Shown here in pieces: positions 1 through 15,198 of a stretch of 32,000 nt of DNA. This DNA comes from Cylindrospermopsis raciborskii Cr2010 (lineage in GTDB: Bacteria; Cyanobacteriota; Cyanobacteriia; Cyanobacteriales; Nostocaceae): assembly GCF_003367075.2 (NCBI RefSeq), contig NZ_CP065936.1, positions 1,860,001 through 1,892,000 on the forward strand. Reading direction: 5' to 3'. Every line of letters begins with the position of its first letter. The stretch's first letter is position 1. A program made the translations under genes and the position numbers. Under the pieces are notes generated by a model that did no database searches, was not told the DNA's origin, and worked only from the letters and a program-made list of their open reading frames with translations.

Positions 1-233
1 TTTTTCAATTCTTCCCAAAACTTTTCCAACCCCTTTACCTGTGCTTTTGGGTTGCCAGGATCTTTAATCTCGACAAACACGATGCGCGTTTCAAACTCAA
101 CCACGAAATCAACACGGTACATTTCGGCTACACCATGATAGTCTGGGAGTGTTTTATCCTTCATTTGATCAAAAATTAGTGCCTCTATTGCATCAGTAAA
201 GTCAATTTCCAAATCTCCCTCTCTCACTTTCAT
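1..233 (-). CDS. 5' part (77 codons, open at the window edge) of a small protein with a PD-(D/E)xK-like motif; putative nuclease partner of the adjacent ATPase
   Basis: Absent from the ORF track because it runs off the window. The ATG at 233-231 overlaps the ATPase stop TGA (232-230) as ATGA. My translation: MKVREGDLEIDFTDAIEALIFDQMKDKTLPDYHGVAEMYRVDFVVEFETRIVFVEIKDPGNPKAQVKGLEKFWEELK. The pattern VDFVV, then 12 residues, then VFVEIK fits the D...ExK restriction-endonuclease-fold signature. The fold call rests on this motif only. Confidence 0.55.
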   Translation of the reverse strand, partial: MKVREGDLEIDFTDAIEALIFDQMKDKTLPDYHGVAEMYRVDFVVEFETRIVFVEIKDPGNPKAQVKGLEKFWEELK

Positions 234-1312
234 TTGCCTAAATCCCCCATTTTTAGGTTTGCCTGTTGTTTGATAAGGTCGCTAAAGGTGTCGGCAATGG
301 CATTTGGTGACATGCCTATGTAGTTATCTACACTATCTAGTTTGATGGTTCCAGATTCATCGTCACGGTAAAGAGTATGAAACAGAATATGATCCCCTTT
401 ACTCTTGTCCATAAGTAAGTCAAACCACTTAAGTAGGACGTAATCATGGGTTGCCAGAATAATTTGCTGTCCATTGCGTGATAGCTCTAGCAAAATGGTA
501 ACGAGACTTTTCATTAGTTTAGGATTCATGTTTGATTCGGGCTCATCCCACAACAGCAAACCACTAACACCGGGTTGAAGCGCTCCCGTTTCTAACAGAC
601 GGTAAAGCATTCCAACTTTGCAAATACCCTCAGCTATAGAGTTAGCGGAGTATTCAGAATCCTCGGTTCTGAAGGTGACTTTGCCTCCTCCATAAAAAAT
701 GAATCGACCACCGCAGATGGCTTTCAGCTCTTCCATGGCCCATTTGGATTTTTCGTGCAGGTTTTCTGGACGAATTTGGGGAAGGTCTAACAACAGGCAA
801 ATATCTTGATAGGTCTGGTCAAAGGAGACTTGGTACATCTGGTACAAACTGTTAAATCCTTCCATAAAGGAGAGGACTTCTTTGGTGGGAAAGAAAACTG
901 GTTTGGATTGGTATTGTTCCCAGCTATTTCTATCCTTGATCTTGATTTCCAAGGATTTAGATCTGGTGCTAAAGCTAACAGCTATCTGTTGATCATGGGC
1001 AAAGTGGGCTTCTAATGTGGCTTTTGCACCTCCACCGTGGTGACGCATTTTGTTTAACTTAGCATCTAAAGGCAAAAATAGGCGTAAAAGCTCAGGGGTA
1101 AGGGCGGAAGCAAGTTCCTTAACAAGTTCTTTGTCACTAATATGGGAATTGTTTTTGAATAGGGGAGCCACACCACTGAGGAAATAAGCAGCTTTGAGCA
1201 GATGGGTTTTTCCTGTGCCATTTTTCCCGATGATCACGTTGATCTTAGGAGAAAAATCAATTTTCACTTCGGTGAAGGCCATGAAGTTTTTCAGTTCTAA
1301 ATGTGTTATCAT
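230..1312 (-). CDS. ABC/SMC-like (AAA_21/AAA_15-type) ATPase, 360 aa
   Basis: ATG start at 1312. Walker A GKNGTGKT is encoded at 1205-1228. A signature-like SIAEGICKVGMLYRLL, Walker B plus D-loop LLLWDEPESNMNP and an H-loop ATHD are present. The stop overlaps the start of the downstream ORF. Confidence 0.88.
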   Translation of the reverse strand: MITHLELKNFMAFTEVKIDFSPKINVIIGKNGTGKTHLLKAAYFLSGVAPLFKNNSHISDKELVKELASALTPELLRLFLPLDAKLNKMRHHGGGAKATLEAHFAHDQQIAVSFSTRSKSLEIKIKDRNSWEQYQSKPVFFPTKEVLSFMEGFNSLYQMYQVSFDQTYQDICLLLDLPQIRPENLHEKSKWAMEELKAICGGRFIFYGGGKVTFRTEDSEYSANSIAEGICKVGMLYRLLETGALQPGVSGLLLWDEPESNMNPKLMKSLVTILLELSRNGQQIILATHDYVLLKWFDLLMDKSKGDHILFHTLYRDDESGTIKLDSVDNYIGMSPNAIADTFSDLIKQQANLKMGDLGK

Positions 1313-1398: not shown

Positions 1399-1502
1399 CT
1401 TATGTATTTGTCTACACTATCTAGTTCGATGGTTCCAGATTCAGCCTTATTGTGTAGGCTATGAAACTGTGTATAGTCCCTTTTACTGTTGTCTATAAGT
1501 AA
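1399..1502 (-). pseudogene. 3'-terminal remnant of a paralog of the 230-1312 ATPase gene
   Basis: Direct-orientation nucleotide similarity to 316-418, roughly three quarters identical by eye. A 33-nt core, tctacactatctagtt[t/c]gatggttccagattca, differs at one base. The remnant translates to LLIDNSKRDYTQFHSLHNKAESGTIELDSVDKYI versus LLMDKSKGDHILFHTLYRDDESGTIKLDSVDNYI in the intact gene. A TAA stop lies immediately upstream in frame and there is no N-terminal part. Confidence 0.65.
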
Positions 1503-1570
1503 TTAAATGGAGAATTGGTACTTCTTGTCAATACCTCAGCCCAAAAAAGATTATGAAATGCTAGGACTGA

Positions 1571-1746: not shown

Positions 1747-2142
1747 TTACGGGATGAAAATGCGTCTTGCGCCTTGATACTCTTCAATATCAACTACAAT
1801 ATCAACCAAACGATTAACGCAGCGATTGCGATAATCTGGCTCGGAAAGTAGTCGATCAATATTACCGATTGTAACGACGGGTAATGATGTGGGGGTATTT
1901 TCCTCCCGCATCACTTGCTCCAGGGAATCTTTGCCTTTCATGCTTCGGTTACCGGTGATCAGGATCATCTGATTGGCTTGAGCATACCGCCAAACAACGC
2001 GATCATCGCTCGTGACAGCTAAACCGACTTCTTCAAAGAGAATAAAACGAATCGATATCAAGTCAAGCCAACCACTCGCAGTAAAGCTCCCAGCGAGGAC
2101 AACAGAATGCCCTCGTAGGTTATGATCAACTAAAAAATTCAT
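1747..2142 (-). CDS. DUF5615-like (PIN/Mut7-C-like) protein, toxin-type partner of the DUF433 gene
   Basis: 131 aa with ATG at 2142. The N-terminus MNFLVDHNL and the stretch SDDRVVWRYAQANQMILITGN match the DUF5615 pattern as I recall it. The start overlaps the upstream stop as ATGA (2139-2142). Confidence 0.75.
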   Translation of the reverse strand: MNFLVDHNLRGHSVVLAGSFTASGWLDLISIRFILFEEVGLAVTSDDRVVWRYAQANQMILITGNRSMKGKDSLEQVMREENTPTSLPVVTIGNIDRLLSEPDYRNRCVNRLVDIVVDIEEYQGARRIFIP

Positions 2143-2513
2143 ACTCGTGATGCAAACTTGGCTTTTTCTGCTTGGAGTTTTGCCCGAATGGCTTCTGTAC
2201 CTGGTTTTGGGGGCTTAGCCGCAATACGGGCAACTCGCTCACGATTTTGTTCTTCGTAATACTGTCTCAGTTCTTCGCCTTCCTTCAGGACAAGCTGATA
2301 CTCTGCATCAACTTCTTCACGGTATGTTTCAATATAAGATAGTGCAGCATTTACCTGTCCATGGGTAAGATCGAGCATAGCACGGATAAACTTTGGTGGA
2401 TAGTTTTCCGTTACGTAATCCATCACATCGTACAGGGTAATGCGAGTACCTGCGATCGTTAATCCTCGCTCTGTACGAATGATATCAGTTTTTCTATTAG
2501 ATGCTGGGGTCAT
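2139..2513 (-). CDS. DUF433-domain protein (antitoxin-like, HTH) with a C-terminal charged helical extension
   Basis: The ORF track starts at TTG 2519; the first ATG is at 2513 (MTPASNRK...). The core GLTIAGTRITLYDVMDYV...LTHGQVNAALSYI matches the DUF433 pattern (G.R. ... aal.y). It begins about 43 nt downstream of the brxC stop. Confidence 0.78.
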   Translation of the reverse strand: MTPASNRKTDIIRTERGLTIAGTRITLYDVMDYVTENYPPKFIRAMLDLTHGQVNAALSYIETYREEVDAEYQLVLKEGEELRQYYEEQNRERVARIAAKPPKPGTEAIRAKLQAEKAKFASRV

Positions 2514-2556
2514 GGTCAAAGCCTCTTAATATGTGTGTTTACTAACTTGTATTTTA

Positions 2557-5500
2557 TCATAGTTGTACTCTTCTCCCACTGCGAACTTCTGCCAATAATG
2601 CCTCCCGCATAACAGCTACATACTGCTCTACATCCGTTTCATCTGCCAGCCACTCTTTGTCGAAACTAAACTGGATGGAACGATGACTTACATACAGACT
2701 TTGTGTCTCTTGCCAATTCCCCACTAATCTTTTTTCTTGATTAGTATGGTATTGATTTGCCTTCTCTGCTACCACACCAGGCTGGGTACAAAAAACTATT
2801 TGCCGTAGCCTTTCGTATTCCTCTTGCTCAAAGTAGCTCTTTCTGTCACGGATTACAGCGATGAGCTTCTGGTTCTTGATAACCTTTATATATTCATCAA
2901 ATGAGCTAGCAATCTCAGTTTGCTGACCAGAGCTAAGGACATGAAACTCAGCCGTAGCAACTAGTTTGCTTCGTAGTGATTCTATTATAGCTACAGCATC
3001 CTCAATTTCTCTATTTAACCGAGTAGTAATCTCTTCCCTCAGTTTAGTCACCAATTCCTTTAACTGCTGCATGCGATCGCCTCGGAAACAGTGAGGGTCA
3101 GCGAGTATTTCCCGCACCTTTTTCTCTTGAAGAGCATTCACTATCAAAAAGTTCGCTTCCTGCTCTTCAATAAACGCCTGGGCACAATCGAATATGTTTC
3201 GCTGTAAACCATTCAGAAATGTGCGAATCGGTTCAATAGTTTGTTCTTTCAGGTCAAGCAGCTCATCTTTTTGTTTGAGAAGGTCTGTAACATACCAGGC
3301 ATAAGGTTTGCCCTTGATGTTTCTTAGTCTGGCGATCGCACTACTAAGTTTTTCTTTAAAGGGATAGTGTGAAGTAGAAAGGGCTTCAAGCCTATCAATT
3401 AAGTCGGAAATGGCGGTTGCGGTTTTTTGTCCCAGTAGTTTGGCATCTCCGCTGGGAGCTGGTTCGTTAAAAAAGTCAGTATATAGTTTCTTTAATGCCC
3501 GTACCTGGGAAGCAGTGAAATCTATTTGCGGTTCAAGAATGATGTTCATGTGGTCACGGGTGTTGGTTAGTGCTTTGAGTAGCTCATTACCATCCAATAG
3601 ATTGCTGTCCCAGCGTACTTCCAGCTTACCTCGGGCACAAAGACTCGCTACATTGTGCAATAGGGCTGCATGATGCCAGCCATAAGGTTTACGTTCAAAT
3701 TTGTCTATTAGCGTTTTTAGGGTTGTCCTTACTCCAAGATCTTTATTGCGCTGAATGGAAGCAAGCACCTCCTGCTCTGGTTCGGTGTCTTCACGAAGCT
3801 GTTCAGGTTTGTTTAGTGCCTCGGACAGATCTTTTTCCGTATAAACCATACCGCGCAGCATTTGTAAATTGGGATAGGTTTTGAGGATCAGATCCTCAAA
3901 TCCCTTGAGGATGCGATTCTGGGGGTCATCTCCCCCTACTTCAATATAGCTGCCATTAAGGATGAGTTTTGATTTACTCAATAATGTGTGTACCCGTTGC
4001 TGGAGATCTGTGTAGCGTTGCCTATTCTGGGAATTCTTATCGGTGAGTATGCTTTTAACTGAATCCTTTTGGGTAATGGACACATTCTGGCTAATATATT
4101 TATCTGTCTGTTTGTACATGATAAGGTCGCGCATGAGTCTTTCCTCTGGTGGTATAATCACTACCAGTTCATCACGTCCCATGGACTGGGCGCGCAGGTT
4201 ATCTTCATTCTCAGCATTTTCATTGAACGGGGAGATGATGTGTATTGTCAATTCACATTCCCGACTATAGAGACGATCATCTATCTTTTTACAAAAGGGA
4301 TAATCCTGTGAGTTGGAGCGAATCTTTTTCAGCTTGAGGGTGTGATCGAAGACTAGCTTTTCTAACTCTTCAGCAACAGCTCTTTTGTCTACCTCCGTAT
4401 TCTTAATCTCCTGTTCCACGTCTTTTTCTTCATCCGTTAGATACTCGTAGAGTTCCCCGTGGCGCTGGATGTAGGTTTCTTGCTCTAATAGGTTTAGTCC
4501 TTCCTCTACTCTCTTACGCAAGTCCGTGATATGGCAATTGAACCGATCAAACATCAACACACAGAGGTTGCGCTGTGTTGCCTTAAATTCTCTTACATAT
4601 TTGACCAGGAACAGGGCTTTTAACAGCTGGATAGCAAAAGTGTTACGCAGGTGTCGCTCCGCCTGTAAAATGGCTTGCTGGATGCTGGATTTTAGTGCTG
4701 AACGGATACCTTCAAACATGAGGTCGAAGGTGGCAAGTTGACCTTCCTCATATTCACTAATCTGTATAGCAACTTGCTGAAAAACACCTAACATGGAACG
4801 CTCTCCAACAGAGCTGTGCTTGCCTTCAAACGCATTGTGAGCTGATAGATTTTGAATGGCAGCTTGGAAAAGGGGAAACTGGTAAGGTATAAAAGGATAG
4901 CTCTGGATAAAGTGATCCCGATCCTGAAAATTACGGTAGGTCTGGGATCCATCAACGAAATCAAAAAGGGTCTTAAAGTTATTCGCTTGGTCATCATATA
5001 ATTTTGAGAGCACATTCTTGCCAATTTCATTTTTCATGAGCAGTCGCTTTTGAATGACTTCAGCAACATCTTGGCTGGTAAGTTTCATCCGGTTGGCAAA
5101 CCGAGCTTGAATCTTGGAAAAATCGTTGGTTTGTTGGCGACTATCTTCTCCTAGTACTGAGTCCATATCTTCTTGGGCGGTAACCATAATCCAAGCGCGT
5201 CCCCTACACTTGGTAGCCAGGCTTTCTGCAACGGTTTGCAGGTTGGTCATTAATTTTACATTGTCGGCGATGTATTGCCCTACCTCATCTACGAAGAAGT
5301 TTAAGCGGAAGTTTTTCCCTTGTTGCTCCACATAGTCAAAAACCGCTTTAGCAAAGTCCTCAATAGAAACCTTGTATTGACTGCGATACTTGTCGAGAAT
5401 TCCTTGACCTGCGATCGCATCGCCACCTACGGTTTGGCCATAGGCGATGGCAATGTTTTTGGACTCTAACAGGGCCTGCTCCCGACCTTCTTCCCAGGGT

Positions 5501-6057
5501 CGATGGGCCACTTCTTTGTATGCTGATTTAAAGCTTTCATATTGACCACGGCTATCTAAGTCCCGCTCAAATTGGGCAATGTAGCCATGTTTACCATAAT
5601 AGCCGCACATCTCGTCAAATACTTTGACAAAGACAGCTAGGAGGGCATCTATTTCAGTCTTGCTAATTACATCAGCCTTTTGGTCAATGTTAAAGAGAAT
5701 ACTTTTTGATGGGATGGAGACAGCCTTTTTGAGGTCACCCCGGAGCATTTCATTTTCACCGCACTTGGGTAGGAAGGAATGTAGTACCGGTATCCCATCC
5801 ACAGATCTATTTTCCAGTAGCAGTGCTAACATCTTGAGCAGGTGAGATTTACCAGAACCAAAGAAACCTGACACCCACACCCCATTGGCACCCTGGTAAT
5901 TGTTGTAAGCATGAAGAAATTCCTCCAGTCGCTTCTCTATCTCGTTAGTGAGTACATATTCTTCAATTTCAATCCGTAGGCTTGCTTCGTCATCTGCTTT
6001 GATGACTCCTTCAATGGGGCGGTCAATTGGCTTCTGAAAAATAGTCTTTAAGGTCAT
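2557..6057 (-). CDS. brxC: BREX system P-loop ATPase BrxC/PglY, 1166 aa
   Basis: The N-terminus IFQKPIDRPIEGVIKADD, then NGVWVSGFFGSGKSHLLKMLALLLEN (Walker A), a Walker B-like FFVDEVGQY, the ~1200 aa size and the position directly after brxB are all typical of BrxC. Confidence 0.9.
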   Translation of the reverse strand: MTLKTIFQKPIDRPIEGVIKADDEASLRIEIEEYVLTNEIEKRLEEFLHAYNNYQGANGVWVSGFFGSGKSHLLKMLALLLENRSVDGIPVLHSFLPKCGENEMLRGDLKKAVSIPSKSILFNIDQKADVISKTEIDALLAVFVKVFDEMCGYYGKHGYIAQFERDLDSRGQYESFKSAYKEVAHRPWEEGREQALLESKNIAIAYGQTVGGDAIAGQGILDKYRSQYKVSIEDFAKAVFDYVEQQGKNFRLNFFVDEVGQYIADNVKLMTNLQTVAESLATKCRGRAWIMVTAQEDMDSVLGEDSRQQTNDFSKIQARFANRMKLTSQDVAEVIQKRLLMKNEIGKNVLSKLYDDQANNFKTLFDFVDGSQTYRNFQDRDHFIQSYPFIPYQFPLFQAAIQNLSAHNAFEGKHSSVGERSMLGVFQQVAIQISEYEEGQLATFDLMFEGIRSALKSSIQQAILQAERHLRNTFAIQLLKALFLVKYVREFKATQRNLCVLMFDRFNCHITDLRKRVEEGLNLLEQETYIQRHGELYEYLTDEEKDVEQEIKNTEVDKRAVAEELEKLVFDHTLKLKKIRSNSQDYPFCKKIDDRLYSRECELTIHIISPFNENAENEDNLRAQSMGRDELVVIIPPEERLMRDLIMYKQTDKYISQNVSITQKDSVKSILTDKNSQNRQRYTDLQQRVHTLLSKSKLILNGSYIEVGGDDPQNRILKGFEDLILKTYPNLQMLRGMVYTEKDLSEALNKPEQLREDTEPEQEVLASIQRNKDLGVRTTLKTLIDKFERKPYGWHHAALLHNVASLCARGKLEVRWDSNLLDGNELLKALTNTRDHMNIILEPQIDFTASQVRALKKLYTDFFNEPAPSGDAKLLGQKTATAISDLIDRLEALSTSHYPFKEKLSSAIARLRNIKGKPYAWYVTDLLKQKDELLDLKEQTIEPIRTFLNGLQRNIFDCAQAFIEEQEANFLIVNALQEKKVREILADPHCFRGDRMQQLKELVTKLREEITTRLNREIEDAVAIIESLRSKLVATAEFHVLSSGQQTEIASSFDEYIKVIKNQKLIAVIRDRKSYFEQEEYERLRQIVFCTQPGVVAEKANQYHTNQEKRLVGNWQETQSLYVSHRSIQFSFDKEWLADETDVEQYVAVMREALLAEVRSGRRVQL

Positions 6058-6066
6058 GGTGTGGTC

Positions 6067-6678
6067 CTATGGTTCGTAATGGAAGATATTAAATGCTCGG
6101 TAGTATTTGTCATCCCGCAATCGCCCAAAGAGATCCAGGGATGCACCGGTTTCGAGGGAATGGGTGTAGGCCCCTGGGAAGAACATTACCGTGGGGCGGT
6201 CCTTGGCAGTGCTTTGGAGGTTGTTGAGAACGTTATGGGAGCGAATGTAAGGAAATACCTCACCCACCCCGGAAATAAACATAACGGCGAATTCCCTCTG
6301 GTCCATTTTTTCCGCAATAGCTGGTACAAGATGCTTTTCGGGATCAAGAACCCCTTGCAGTAGCTCCTTGAGTTGCTCTTTGGAAACTGAAGGCTCAATA
6401 TCCAGAATTTGCTCCCACACTCCTCGCTTTTGTAAAAGCTCAATGGAAAGATTATACAAGTTAATTTCCAGCACGCCAAGCCCAGCTTGATTGAGGCTCT
6501 TGGTAAGTTGTTGCTGAATGTATTCCATTTCTACTGACTCTTCTGGTCTATAGGGACAGATAAAAAATGGCACTTCGTTTCCTAAACCCTGCTTTTTCAG
6601 AAAGCGATCGCCAGAAATAACTTTTAGCAGGTGCTGAAATCTCTCTTGTATTGGTTGTGTTTCTATATCTAGTGCCAT
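6067..6678 (-). CDS. brxB: BREX protein BrxB (DUF1788), 203 aa
   Basis: Motifs match the DUF1788/BrxB pattern as I recall it: FLKKQGLGNEVPFFICPYRPEESVEMEYI, ISGVGEVFPYIRSHNVLNNLQ and RPTVMFFPGAY. The gene ends 9 nt before the brxC start. Confidence 0.85.
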   Translation of the reverse strand: MALDIETQPIQERFQHLLKVISGDRFLKKQGLGNEVPFFICPYRPEESVEMEYIQQQLTKSLNQAGLGVLEINLYNLSIELLQKRGVWEQILDIEPSVSKEQLKELLQGVLDPEKHLVPAIAEKMDQREFAVMFISGVGEVFPYIRSHNVLNNLQSTAKDRPTVMFFPGAYTHSLETGASLDLFGRLRDDKYYRAFNIFHYEP

Positions 6679-7006
6679 AAACTTTATTCTCTTCTATATC
6701 TTTATTTCCAAACAAGGATGTGTTTAGGATTTTTTAAAAACTATTTCAACTGTGAGATCCTGCTTTTTGGGGAAGAAATTGCTAATTTTTTCCCCCGGTT
6801 TGATAAGCTGTTTGTAGGTGCAACACAAAAGTATGGACAATATTTGGACTAGCTCTAGATGGAGTCAGTAAGGCGACTTTGACTGCGCCAATTAGAGTAC
6901 GCTTGTGGAACTTTCGGCATAACGAACCTCCGCACAAAAACGGTTCTAATGAATCCCCGTCTCTTTAGGGCGGGGAGAAGTCAACACATATCATGAATTA
7001 AGGAAC

Positions 7007-11344: not shown

Positions 11345-11648
11345 AATTACCCGTTATTGTTTAAATTAATCCACATCTGGTCCGTGGGGGAGACTCAAAG
11401 CCCAAGTCGGTCAAACCCGACTGGTTAAGGTAGCTCCACAAGCTAGTCACGCCAACTGGTAATTCAGGGGAGGTTATGAGTATTCTGGTAAGACACATTG
11501 TGATTAATTAGTTTCTTTGCTAACTCGTGGGTCTTCCCATGAGTTATGGAGGTTTTTTGTGGGTGGAAAACACAACTGAGACCGGGAATCAATTCCCGGT
11601 CTCCCCCATGGACCAAGTGTGGATTAATTCAAGCAATAACGGGTAGTT
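11345..11648. mobile_element. MITE-like element (or long-stem structured RNA) with 50-bp terminal inverted repeats
   Basis: The left arm 11345-11394 and the reverse complement of 11599-11648 match at 44/50 positions, and all 6 differences are transitions. Internal hairpins lie at 11402-11424 and 11578-11603 (12-bp perfect stem gagaccgggaat/attcccggtctc). There is no ORF of significant length inside. Confidence 0.5.
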
Positions 11649-11706
11649 GGCGAGATCCCGTGGGTTTGTTGAGTTTAATAACTCAACCTACAAATAATTG
11701 TATCTC

Positions 11707-13110
<1,404 letters not shown>

Positions 13111-13140
13111 TTAATTTTTCTCTCCTTTATTTATATTTAT

Positions 13141-13674
13141 TTAATTTTCGGGGAAGAGACGGGCCATTTCCGAACCATCAAAAACCCTGGGAGGTAGTTC
13201 CTCGCCATTTCCAGAAGAATCTCCGCCCCAAACGTCAGAAACCAACTCACCCGTCTCATGGGATTGGTTGAAATCATCGAATTCATCATCATCCGGTAAA
13301 TTCAACCCTAGAGACCTATTCACCAGTGAAGGATTTTCTCCCACCACACTAGGTGCATCGGAATATACTTTCCCATCATCCAGATTACGTGCTTGACCTG
13401 CAATAGCAAGGTCGGGGTCAAAATTTAATCCCAGAACCTCAATTAAAATATCGGGGTCAGGATTCAACTTAGCAAAAGGAAACATCAACTGAGCAAGTTT
13501 AGGTTCCAAAGCGTTGACCACACCCAGGATCAGGTAAGAAGAAGGACGTTTACCTCCATCAGGGGTAGACATTGATTGTGCAGCCATCTGCACCACAATC
13601 CACTCACGATTAACCTCAAAAAAATGTAACCACTTTTGTTTAATTGCATCAGTAAAACTATCGAAGAAAGCCAT
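13141..13674 (-). CDS. Conserved cyanobacterial hypothetical protein between chlL and chlN (DUF5331-like as I recall), with an acidic C-terminus
   Basis: 177 aa with ATG at 13674, on the same strand as chlL and chlN and between them. The family name is from memory and was not verified. Confidence 0.75.
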   Translation of the reverse strand: MAFFDSFTDAIKQKWLHFFEVNREWIVVQMAAQSMSTPDGGKRPSSYLILGVVNALEPKLAQLMFPFAKLNPDPDILIEVLGLNFDPDLAIAGQARNLDDGKVYSDAPSVVGENPSLVNRSLGLNLPDDDEFDDFNQSHETGELVSDVWGGDSSGNGEELPPRVFDGSEMARLFPEN

Positions 13675-13884
13675 ATTTCCCCTATCCGGTAAAAACTAAA
13701 TTGTTGGGTGAAAAAACCAAGCAGAAAAATCAGGTTTTCAAGAACTGCTGTGTTTTATGTGTAATATAACAGCAACTGACCATGATACGGGAGACTAAAG
13801 GACAATTGTAGATAAGATGAAACTGTTTTTCGATAGCTATTTTGCTGCAACTGGGTTCCTAATCTTCACCCCTAATTAAACACC

Positions 13885-14751
13885 TCAGACCATCATCAGT
13901 TTCAATTCTTGTTCCTGGTTATTAGTCTGTGGTTTAGTGGGATTTAAATAGAAATCTGACAACAGGGAAAACAGTTCCCGGTCAGGAGCATCACTGGGAA
14001 CAACCCCCTCTGGTTGAGCTAAAATTTGGTCAGCAATACTCAAATAATAGTCACAAACATAATTGAGTGAGGGGTCTGATTCTGCCATTTCAAACAGGGT
14101 TTTACCCTTAACACGAGAAACACGAATATCTTCAATCAATGGCAATACCTCTAATACAGGCATTGGCACTGCTTCTACATACTTCTCAATTAAATCCCGT
14201 TTCGCGGTGCGATTACCAATTAAACCTGCTAAACGTAAGGGGTGAGTTCTGGCTTTTTCACGGACAGAAGCAGCAATGCGATTAGCAGCAAAGAGTGCAT
14301 CAAAACCGTTATCAGTGACAATTAAACAGTAATCAGCATAGTTTAGAGGTGCAGCAAAACCACCACAAACCACATCACCTAAAACATCAAACAGAATCAC
14401 ATCATACTCATCAAAAGCATTGAGTTCCTTTAAGAGTTTGACAGTTTCACCTACCACATAACCACCACATCCTGCACCTGCGGGTGGTCCACCAGCTTCT
14501 ACACAGTCAACACCACCATATCCAGGGTAAATGACATCCTCTGGCCACACATCTTCATAGTGATAGTCTTTTTCTTGCAGGGTGTCAATGATGGTGGGAA
14601 TCAAAAACCCGGTTAGGGTAAAAGTGCTGTCATGTTTTGGGTCACAGCCAATTTGTAGTACCTTTTTACCCCGTTTGGCAAGGGCCACGGATATGTTACA
14701 GCTGGTTGTAGATTTACCAATACCACCCTTTCCATAAACTGCTAATTTCAT
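13885..14751 (-). CDS. chlL: DPOR ATP-binding iron-sulfur protein subunit L
   Basis: [46 protein letters not shown] is a NifH-like P-loop with the 4Fe-4S cysteines; 288 aa. Confidence 0.97.
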
Positions 14752-15198
14752 AATTTCTCATCTCTCAATAGTTTTTCTTTTCGGTTCCACAGAGATCCTG
14801 GGTTTTTACCAGGTAATTTCTCAAGGTCTGTGATTGTCATTATTATCCAAGTTCCCCATAAAGCAAAGGGCAATCAACTACGAAATTCTGCTCTAAATGT
14901 AGAATTTACAAGCAAAACTGATTTTTTATGGGTTAAATGTCCCTTAAATCTTAAAAAATCTCTATATTTAGCTCTAAATCAATTTTTTATTACTTTTACA
15001 CTAAAAATAGTTACAAAAAACAAATTAGCCATTATGGGGGGTAATCCAGGTAGGTGCTAGGATAGGAAGACGGAAATATGGGGATTGGGGAGATTTAATA
15101 CTAGGTTGAGCTTTTATGTAAATTATTATTAAAATAGAATAGCGTTCCCCTATAATCCCCGAAAAAGGATTATGGATAAAGGCGATCGCTAAGTGATA

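Follow-up and report, generated by a model that had tools for sequence, protein, structure and literature searches.

Two adjacent genes at the beginning of the analysed stretch of DNA (hereafter the window; 32,000 nucleotides of the Cylindrospermopsis raciborskii Cr2010 genome) very probably form a member of the anti-phage system HEC-02 of PADLOC-DB, carried as a passenger in a BREX operon of probable type 1, with brxC on one side and pglX on the other. The pair is an ordinary member of an already catalogued system, not a new one, and couples an OLD/Septu-like ABC ATPase to a small putative nuclease of ~175 aa. The definition and the testing of HEC-02, which comprises an ABC ATPase and a NERD-like PD-(D/E)xK protein, are the work of Payne, Hughes, Fineran & Jackson (bioRxiv 10.1101/2024.01.29.577857). 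The genes and motifs of the pair are located as follows.

230–1312, minus strand: ABC-type ATPase assigned to HEC-02, 360 aa, intact (ORF list, Pfam, PADLOC, AF2 with Foldseek)
1205–1228, minus strand: Walker A / P-loop GKNGTGKT, residues 29–36, the lysine being K35 (read from the sequence)
626–640, minus strand: ABC signature-like motif SIAEG, residues 225–229 (read from the sequence)
521–547, minus strand: Walker B/D-loop LLLWDEPESNMNP, DEPESNMNP being residues 256–264 (read from the sequence)
443–451, minus strand: H-loop THD, residues 288–290 (read from the sequence)
230–233, minus strand: ATGA overlap of ATPase stop and partner start (read from the sequence)
1–233, minus strand: small HEC-02 partner, putative PD-(D/E)xK-type nuclease, first 77 codons, cut by the window edge
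63–110, minus strand: putative catalytic core of the partner, D42 ... E55-x-K57 (conservation and AF2 model)

We assigned the pair to HEC-02 because both proteins match PADLOC models of this system end to end. The ATPase matches PDLC04213 with an E-value of 8.2e-115 (residues 1–356 on profile positions 1–335 of 337) and the full-length partner matches PDLC04229 with 1.5e-69 (residues 1–170 on positions 1–169 of 171); the 77-residue fragment in the window already reaches 3.6e-26 with the latter model. In addition, the partner matches 8 more HEC-02 small-protein models, and the ATPase matches the Dickeya-type model PDLC04146 (E 7e-61). The ATPase carries the label 'HEC-02A' in PDLC04213/04214, while the original Dickeya-type models PDLC04145/04146 use A and B the other way round. 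An earlier note, made from the letters of the sequence, had described a two-gene module of an ABC ATPase and a PD-(D/E)xK-type protein inside a BREX locus, a description that our analysis supports, and had taken it for a candidate 'uncharacterised' module, not recognised as a named system, a view that the two PADLOC matches overturn. Our literature search found no later renaming of HEC-02.

The 360-aa reading frame and its Walker A, DEPESNMNP and THD motifs are as the earlier note had them, with SIAEG missing from its list; we assign SIAEG as the ABC signature motif from its position before Walker B. Across 53 homologues, invariant residues are G29, N31, T33, G34 and K35 in Walker A, A227, E228 and G229 in SIAEG, W255, D256, P258, E259, N261 and N263 in Walker B/D-loop, and D290 in the H-loop, where conservation of T288 and H289 reaches at least 90%. 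The protein matches the Pfam families AAA_21 (the best), AAA_15, AAA_23 and SMC_N. Its AF2 model (pLDDT 69.7, pTM 0.74) aligns with the heads of Rad50, SMC and PtuA at Foldseek E-values of 1e-13 to 1e-10 and a probability of 1.00, and the predicted fold is that of an ABC ATPase, not of an AAA+ protein.

Since the solved proteins closest to the ATPase in sequence and in structure are the heads of Rad50 and SMC, and the description of AAA_21 reads 'putative AbiEii toxin', the pair might be read as a housekeeping module for DNA repair or chromosome maintenance (SbcCD-like) or as a type IV toxin-antitoxin pair. We regard this as very improbable. The likeness to Rad50 and SMC is the generic ABC head similarity common to all defence ABC ATPases, the 360-aa protein is compact, and coiled-coil arms are not predicted in its AF2 model. 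Furthermore, in the loci examined the pair never lies beside housekeeping partners and is instead nested in BREX or RM operons. Its phyletic spread is patchy with 60–70% identity between cyanobacteria and proteobacteria, which argues against a housekeeping role and points to horizontal transfer.

For the small partner, the window stops mid-gene, and the integrity of the gene in the Cr2010 genome is therefore inferred from near-identical genomes, in which the protein has 178 aa (for example L001:11080–11616, with residues 1–77 identical to the window fragment). The putative catalytic residues D42 (108–110), E55 (69–71) and K57 (63–65) are arranged as D42-x12-E55-I-K57. The earlier note had identified the D...ExK residues within the visible 77 correctly, but its spacing 'VDFVV-x12-VFVEIK' was loose, since the two blocks lie 6 residues apart and the 12-residue spacing is that between D42 and E55. 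None of the three residues varies among 64 database homologues, and of 65 genomic homologues with identities down to 30%, 63 have D42, 64 have E55 and 64 have K57; such conservation is not chance. In the AF2 model, which is of moderate quality (pLDDT 68.5), D42 opens the strand 43–47 and E55-x-K57 closes the strand 51–57, an arrangement that fits the PD-(D/E)xK hairpin. A Foldseek search of the PDB with this model returned nothing at E ≤ 0.001 (best 0.06, TM about 0.3), and the sub-threshold matches are mostly PD-(D/E)xK nucleases (MUS81, R.BspD6I, Bax1, Shedu, Can2, HincII and RecU). Pfam searches with the fragment, the full-length protein and 64 family members gave no family above threshold and did not detect NERD; sub-threshold matches again fall mostly into the PD-(D/E)xK clan (SfsA, Tox-REase-9, SduA_C and UPF0102). 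A partner-family profile search of PDB sequences yielded no credible relative. Taken together, conservation and model suggest a putative nuclease with a PD-(D/E)xK (NERD-like) fold.

The experimental basis of HEC-02 comes from Dickeya dianthicola NCPPB 3534, whose two genes were picked as a cassette lying within Hma systems; cloned alone, they protected E. coli, both genes were needed, and plaquing of at least two phages dropped by orders of magnitude (bioRxiv 10.1101/2024.01.29.577857). Table S8 of the same study marks a two-gene cassette that occurs within BREX, DISARM or type I RM with 'Incorporate into HEC-02 model', and it is from such cassettes that PADLOC added the subfamily to which the window pair belongs. 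The Dickeya and window ATPases align over their full length with 32% identity (E 2e-47), and the Dickeya ATPase matches PDLC04213 with an E-value of 2e-83. The small Dickeya protein matches PDLC04229, the best model of the window partner, at 7e-7 in its N-terminal catalytic half, and reading its sequence by eye reveals the same D-x12-ExKD spacing; a direct BLASTP comparison with the window partner found no significant similarity (E 1.2). As far as sequence comparison goes, the effectors of the two subfamilies are related only at the profile level. Anti-phage activity of the window subfamily would be carried over by analogy from a distant member, and the BREX-embedded subfamily stands far from the sole tested representative, with an ATPase at 32% identity and a remote effector.

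The surrounding locus adds four features.

1401–1507, minus strand: 3'-terminal relic of another, diverged ATPase gene copy, within the spacer upstream of the intact gene
1747–2519, minus strand: overlapping DUF433 (2139–2519) and DUF5615 (1747–2142) genes between brxC and the ATPase gene
2557–6057, minus strand: brxC, 1166 aa (PADLOC BrxC PDLC02479, 1711.8 bits, end to end; Pfam BrxC domains)
6067–6678, minus strand: brxB, 203 aa (Pfam BrxB E 1.7e-41; PADLOC BrxB E 2e-70)

Within the type-1 BREX gene set, brxB and brxC lie in the window, and pglX, pglZ and brxL are supplied by near-identical genomes; brxA was not found by tblastn, with only 329 bp available upstream of brxB. In relatives the order is brxB-brxC-[DUF433/DUF5615]-[HEC-02]-pglX-[DUF1016]-pglZ-brxL. 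Beyond the window edge, the pair in six near-identical genomes is followed directly by pglX, the DUF1016 gene, pglZ and brxL, apart from one genome (L003) in which an IS1 transposase replaces the DUF1016 gene. The earlier note had placed the pair downstream of brxB-brxC, where pglX would normally follow, and had proposed to recover the complete partner and the genes beyond it; brxB, brxC and the following pglX bear out this placement, which had overlooked the intervening DUF433/DUF5615 genes. The latter match PF04255 (E 5e-6) and PF18480 (E 1e-5), both above the gathering cut-offs, have no PADLOC match, and constitute a second small embedded module resembling a toxin-antitoxin pair. GC content is 0.41–0.45 in the BREX part versus 0.36–0.42 elsewhere, an excess too weak to call an island, and a scan of positions 1–2700 for promoters and terminators found no more of them than shuffled sequence contains.

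Some parts of the locus show signs of erosion. The relic shares 79% nucleotide identity with positions 317–423 and translates to LLIDNSKRDYTQFHSLHNKAESGTIELDSVDKYIS, bounded by stop codons, its counterpart being ATPase residues about 298–333. The DUF1016/YhcG gene is cut down to its N-domain in 4 of the 6 near-identical genomes, and in L003 pglX/pglZ are disrupted by the IS1 transposase. These observations, together with the missing brxA, could suggest that the defence island is degenerating and that the pair, as a passenger in it, is in decay and without function. We consider this improbable, because the reading frames of both genes are intact, all catalytic motifs are present, and the ATGA overlap, which indicates translational coupling as the earlier note had stated from the same four bases, is kept. 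The ATPase is moreover 100% identical across the six near-identical genomes, and the same protein occurs in at least 23 contigs despite differing neighbour genes. PglX shows 84–87% identity in 4 of the 5 other genomes and is disrupted in the fifth, L003; that the ATPase stays identical while PglX differs argues that it is maintained.

Homologous loci place the pair among defence genes; a check for co-occurrence in defence islands had been proposed in the earlier note for cyanobacteria. In all but one of the 65 loci examined, the two genes lie next to each other. Type-1-like BREX flanks occur in 38 of 55 homologous loci from other phyla and are absent in 17. The order brxC, pair, pglX is found in 21 of the 55, and 10 were scored as insertions inside a split pglX, although one of these (L030) is followed immediately by an intact pglX and fits the order brxC, pair, pglX better; in a further 5 pglX lies directly downstream and the upstream flank is cut off. 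Other sites include a type I RM system, a BREX type 3 system and a position beside a mad3-like ATPase.

A rival reading is that the pair does not act autonomously. It might instead be a BREX-integrated backup, which guards BREX by sensing phage anti-BREX proteins or acts on DNA already marked or nicked by BREX, and whose activity would require the neighbouring BREX genes or be adjusted to them. A guard of this kind has a parallel in PARIS, which senses Ocr. The position at the brxC/pglX junction or in a split pglX is strikingly fixed across the 55 loci of many phyla, and the junctions are tight (0–44 nt from brxC stop to ATPase start in 13 loci; 7–75 nt from partner stop to pglX start). However, canonical BREX systems function without the pair, and the fixed position could also result from co-transfer with BREX or from recombination through brxC and pglX as homology arms. 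A comparative-genomics survey that reports pairs of an OLD-type ABC ATPase and a PD-(D/E)xK REase within BREX loci proposes exactly such a backup-effector role for OLD-ABC and nuclease dyads (PMC12839542; NAR 2026), but the Dickeya cassette defended E. coli when cloned alone (bioRxiv 10.1101/2024.01.29.577857), and the RM, BREX type 3 and mad3-like contexts, as well as the 17 loci lacking a type-1 BREX flank, speak for independence. We therefore hold a BREX-dependent role to be rather unlikely, although it overlaps with the assignment to HEC-02 and does not exclude it.

Sequence divergence within the pair bears on its possible role. The effector remains 63–67% identical where the ATPase has diverged to 41–43%, in keeping with a sensor that varies and an effector that stays constant. 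A more specific and slightly more doubtful proposal is that the subfamily is a position-specific companion of BREX, residing at the brxC/pglX junction or in a split pglX, in which a fast-diverging ATPase guards against phage anti-BREX factors and recombination exchanges alleles among BREX loci. The relic at 1401–1507 would then be the footprint of an allele swap, and the pair would offer an experimental handle on BREX backup under phage inhibition.

Returning to the pair as a HEC-02 member, we outline a mechanism modelled on PARIS (AriA/AriB) and on Septu (PtuA/PtuB) that also draws on the discussion of Payne et al. The ATPase may oligomerise and keep the nuclease in an inactive complex until the variable inserts of the ATPase detect a phage-derived trigger, which could be a protein or a nucleic-acid structure. 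ATP binding or hydrolysis would then release or activate the nuclease, which would cut nucleic acid with the D42/E55/K57 metal site and stop the infection. Complex formation, trigger, nuclease substrate and abortive-infection outcome are all inferred for this pair from those systems.

A routine PADLOC run would label the pair HEC-02, and the embedding of ABC ATPase and nuclease pairs in BREX has already been published. The residual value of the locus is that of a clean cyanobacterial example of embedding in several layers, in which a single BREX operon houses three small modules.

Among other known systems, the non-HEC runners-up in PADLOC match the ATPase only partially (AriA 6.5e-23, AbiLi 1e-16, PtuA 5.6e-13, GajA 1e-11). 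PARIS shares the design of an ABC ATPase sensor (AriA) and a separate nuclease effector (the Toprim protein AriB) encoded by two genes; we rejected it since the HEC-02 match is about 90 orders of magnitude better than that of AriA and the partner matches neither AriB nor Toprim/DUF4435 in PADLOC or Pfam. Septu and PtuAB-type retron effectors likewise combine the ABC ATPase PtuA with a separate small nuclease, PtuB, which is of HNH type, whereas the window effector is putatively of PD-(D/E)xK type. By Foldseek, PtuA structures (8sux, 8ee4 and 8eea, E about 1e-11) rank among those closest to the ATPase model, but PtuA HMMs cover only residues 2–45 at the N-terminal P-loop and the partner has no PtuB or HNH match. 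The view of the earlier note, a Septu- or PARIS-like logic with a different effector, agrees with the lack of AriB and PtuB model matches in the partner. Gabija and class 1–2 OLD were dismissed because the 360-aa ATPase has no C-terminal Toprim and GajA and Old HMMs touch only the P-loop or Walker B region, and AbiL as a family because its HMM matches, like those of PARIS, Septu and Gabija/OLD, are partial and at least 90 orders of magnitude weaker than HEC-02, with the defining effector missing in each case. HEC-01, HEC-03 and HEC-04 follow the same design of ABC ATPase plus effector and came from the same embedding approach (bioRxiv 10.1101/2024.01.29.577857), but their effectors are Toprim, PIN or fused Toprim proteins, and HEC-01A models match the ATPase weakly (E 3e-15 or worse in PADLOC). 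By description, the dyads of PMC12839542 resemble the window pair in joining an ABC ATPase with a non-Toprim nuclease in the BREX core locus. HEC-02 shares with the window pair the following design: two co-oriented genes for an ABC ATPase of ~340–380 aa and a ~170-aa protein with a (D/E/Q)xK motif of PD-(D/E)xK/NERD-like type, in a family that was itself discovered by its embedding in other defence systems.

The ABC ATPase and its small partner make up a system that is already in the catalogue, HEC-02, and embedding in BREX is a kind of context that has been described before. The ATPase matches the PADLOC-DB HEC-02 model PDLC04213 end to end (E 8e-115), and the full-length partner matches PDLC04229 end to end (E 1.5e-69) together with eight further HEC-02 small-protein models. 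Matches of the ATPase to other defence ATPase families in PADLOC are partial and far weaker (AriA 6.5e-23, AbiLi 1e-16, PtuA 6e-13, GajA 1e-11), and no AriB, PtuB, Toprim or HNH model matched the partner. HEC-02 membership, as PADLOC defines HEC-02, is solid. An earlier note on this sequence had interpreted the two-gene ATPase and nuclease architecture rightly; its claim that the pair belongs to no named system falls, since both proteins match one, a result the note itself regarded as refuting.

HEC-02 goes back to Payne et al. (10.1101/2024.01.29.577857), who defined it as the combination of an ABC ATPase with a NERD-like PD-(D/E)xK protein, embedded in Hma systems. In their Table S8 a two-gene cassette is marked 'Incorporate into HEC-02 model', which is plausibly why dedicated HMMs exist for the subfamily of the window pair. 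OLD-type ABC ATPases with PD-(D/E)xK REases, HNH or PIN nucleases were described within BREX across 594 taxa in a 2026 NAR survey (PMC12839542). The HEC-02 A/B labels are reversed within PADLOC: PDLC04145 names the small protein 'HEC-02A' and PDLC04146 the ATPase 'HEC-02B', whereas in the later-added models (PDLC04213-04229) A is the ATPase and B the small protein, which could confuse automated annotation.

Features of the window at and upstream of the pair
230-1312, minus: intact ATPase ORF, 360 aa
443-451, minus: H-loop, THD
521-547, minus: DEPESNMNP part of the Walker B/D-loop, LLLWDEPESNMNP
ATPase residues 225-229: signature-like SIAEG
1205-1228, minus: Walker A, GKNGTGKT (residues 29-36; lysine K35)
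1747-2519, minus: overlapping DUF433 (126 aa) and DUF5615 (131 aa) genes, between brxC and the ATPase gene
2557-6057, same strand as the pair: brxC, upstream of the pair
6067-6678, same strand as the pair: brxB, upstream of the pair

All ATPase motifs proposed from the sequence (Walker A, Walker B/D-loop and H-loop) were thus read in the 360-aa ORF. Foldseek aligns its AF2 model (pLDDT 69.7, pTM 0.74) with the heads of Rad50 and SMC, with Septu PtuA and with retron ATPases of the PtuA type (E 1e-13 to 1e-10); these matches confirm an ABC fold, and a long coiled coil is not predicted. The spacer immediately before the live gene contains a 107-nt relic (1401-1507, minus strand) of a second ATPase gene copy, diverged and represented by its 3' end. 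The relic is 79% identical to 317-423, yields ~35 homologous residues on translation and has stop codons on both sides; it may be the footprint of an allele or cassette replacement.

The ATPase stop overlaps the partner ATG (ATGA, 230-233, minus strand), in line with the proposed coupling. The partner ORF leaves the window after 77 codons and bears D42 and E55-I-K57; in six near-identical genomes (L001-L006) the full protein has 178 aa, of which residues 1-77 are identical to those of the window. The signature had been written VDFVV-x12-VFVEIK: its D...ExK residues are present, while x12 is the D-to-E distance and not the gap between the quoted peptides. D42, E46, E55, K57, K88, D91, Y95, W97 and E99 show little or no variation in 65 homologues, whose identity goes down to 30%. 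In a mediocre AF2 model (pLDDT 68.5), D42 opens strand 43-47, E55-x-K57 closes strand 51-57, and helices and one more strand follow, the predicted order of strands being that of a PD-(D/E)xK core. Foldseek with this model gave no match at E <= 0.001; the best sub-threshold matches are almost all PD-(D/E)xK nucleases (MUS81, R.BspD6I, Bax1, Shedu, Can2, HincII, RecU, Hjc), and sub-threshold Pfam matches in 64 family members fall in the same clan (SfsA, Tox-REase-9, SduA_C, UPF0102, DUF4143). The NERD Pfam family was detected neither in the partner nor among these 64 members. A PD-(D/E)xK fold is probable, not demonstrated.

At least 23 public contigs encode this very ATPase protein, and six long ones among them (L001-L006), presumably from Raphidiopsis/Cylindrospermopsis-type cyanobacteria, keep the neighbourhood; in the closest, L004, 21 of 11,312 compared positions differ from the window. 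The pair lies downstream of brxB-brxC, as the earlier note had stated; beyond the partner, these relatives carry pglX, a DUF1016 gene (replaced in L003 by an IS1 transposase), pglZ and brxL. Window and relatives together give brxB-brxC-[DUF433/DUF5615]-[ATPase+partner]-pglX-[DUF1016]-pglZ-brxL, probably a BREX locus of type 1, into which three modules are embedded and from which brxA is missing. A tblastn search of the window with a BrxA sequence gave no match, and 329 bp (6679-7006) separate brxB from a divergent gene (PmbA/TldD by Pfam in the near-identical loci). The DUF433/DUF5615 pair, absent from the earlier description of the brxC-ATPase interval, resembles a toxin-antitoxin module and matches no PADLOC model.

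The DUF1016/YhcG PD-(D/E)xK gene (PADLOC candidate PDC-S02; L001:15110-15556, L005:15098-16147) is intact in L005 (349 aa) and reduced to a 148-aa N-domain in L001, L002, L004 and L006. PglX (about 11622-15160) is 84-87% identical to that of L001 in four of the near-identical genomes, compared with 98-100% for BrxC and 100% for the ATPase across the same set, a contrast which suggests that the methyltransferase, or the part of it that recognises the target, varies rapidly or is exchanged. In L003 (11622-15474) pglX is broken into three ORFs and pglZ is shortened, with the IS1-family transposase between the two; the HEC-02 pair is still intact.

Partner homologues occur in many phyla, one tier having 54-72% identity and a second 30-45%. 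In 64 of the 65 loci the gene directly upstream encodes an ATPase homologue.

Genomic contexts of 55 loci from a species-level genome collection
brxC / pair / pglX: 21
Scored inside pglX split into two ~600-aa ORFs, often with SIR2-HerA: 10 (in one of them, L030, an intact pglX lies 29 nt past the pair, and the locus is better read as brxC/pair/pglX)
pglX next downstream, upstream flank truncated: 5
BrxC-like on the upstream side only: 2
No type-1 BREX flank: 17 (for several of them the contig is too short for a judgement)

In most of the other loci the ATPase gene follows brxC directly (0-44 nt in 13 loci). Two loci of the brxC/pair/pglX type carry an extra 1.7-2.5 kb there (L021:7212-8949 and L030:6435-8943), and in L030 the ATPase gene is also closely preceded by a short fragment resembling PglX-N; the extra sequence may represent further embedded genes or relics. 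Three unflanked loci are defence contexts: in L027 a type I RM, in L049 PglXI/pair/BrxHI of BREX type 3, and in L032 a mad3-like ATPase as neighbour. No housekeeping synteny, which the earlier note held would speak against its proposal, was seen among the examined loci.

In Stutzerimonas, Bordetella parapertussis, Pseudomonas, Massilia, Azonexus and others (L007-L019 except L011, plus L043), pglX forms two ~600-aa ORFs with the pair inserted in the split, usually followed by SIR2 and then HerA/DUF87; in L011 the pair lies upstream of pglX-N and SIR2-HerA alone occupies the split. Among the proteobacterial loci the PglX-N/pair/SIR2/HerA block is 70-93% identical, as against 45-61% for BrxA, BrxB, BrxC and PglZ; by this measure, cassettes therefore appear to move between BREX loci. 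Between the cyanobacterial and split-pglX types the effector is 63-67% and the ATPase 41-43% identical, consistent with a sensor that varies and an effector that is conserved.

The best-supported model, drawn by analogy with PARIS and Septu and from the discussion of Payne et al., is that the ABC ATPase would act as sensor and regulator, keeping the nuclease in check. A phage trigger, perceived through variable inserts of the ATPase, together with ATP binding or hydrolysis, would free or activate the nuclease, which would then cut nucleic acid. Such pairs have also been interpreted as backup effectors of BREX (PMC12839542), and the positional conservation seen here favours some coupling; given the non-BREX contexts and the stand-alone activity of the Dickeya system, we nevertheless consider it rather unlikely that the pair works as a BREX backup or guard and not autonomously. 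The anti-phage role of the window's subfamily is putative, and so is a functional coupling to BREX.

The HEC-02 representative that was tested comes from Dickeya dianthicola NCPPB 3534: in E. coli it lowered the plaquing of at least two phages by orders of magnitude, and both of its genes were needed (10.1101/2024.01.29.577857). Judged by similarity, transfer of this function to the window pair would span a considerable distance: the small proteins share no significant BLASTP similarity (E 1.2), and the ATPases are 32% identical over their full length (E 2e-47). The Dickeya ATPase nevertheless matches the same model as that of the window, PDLC04213 (2e-83), its small protein matches PDLC04229 over the N-terminal catalytic half (7e-7), and D-x12-ExKD spacing, read by eye, is common to both small proteins.
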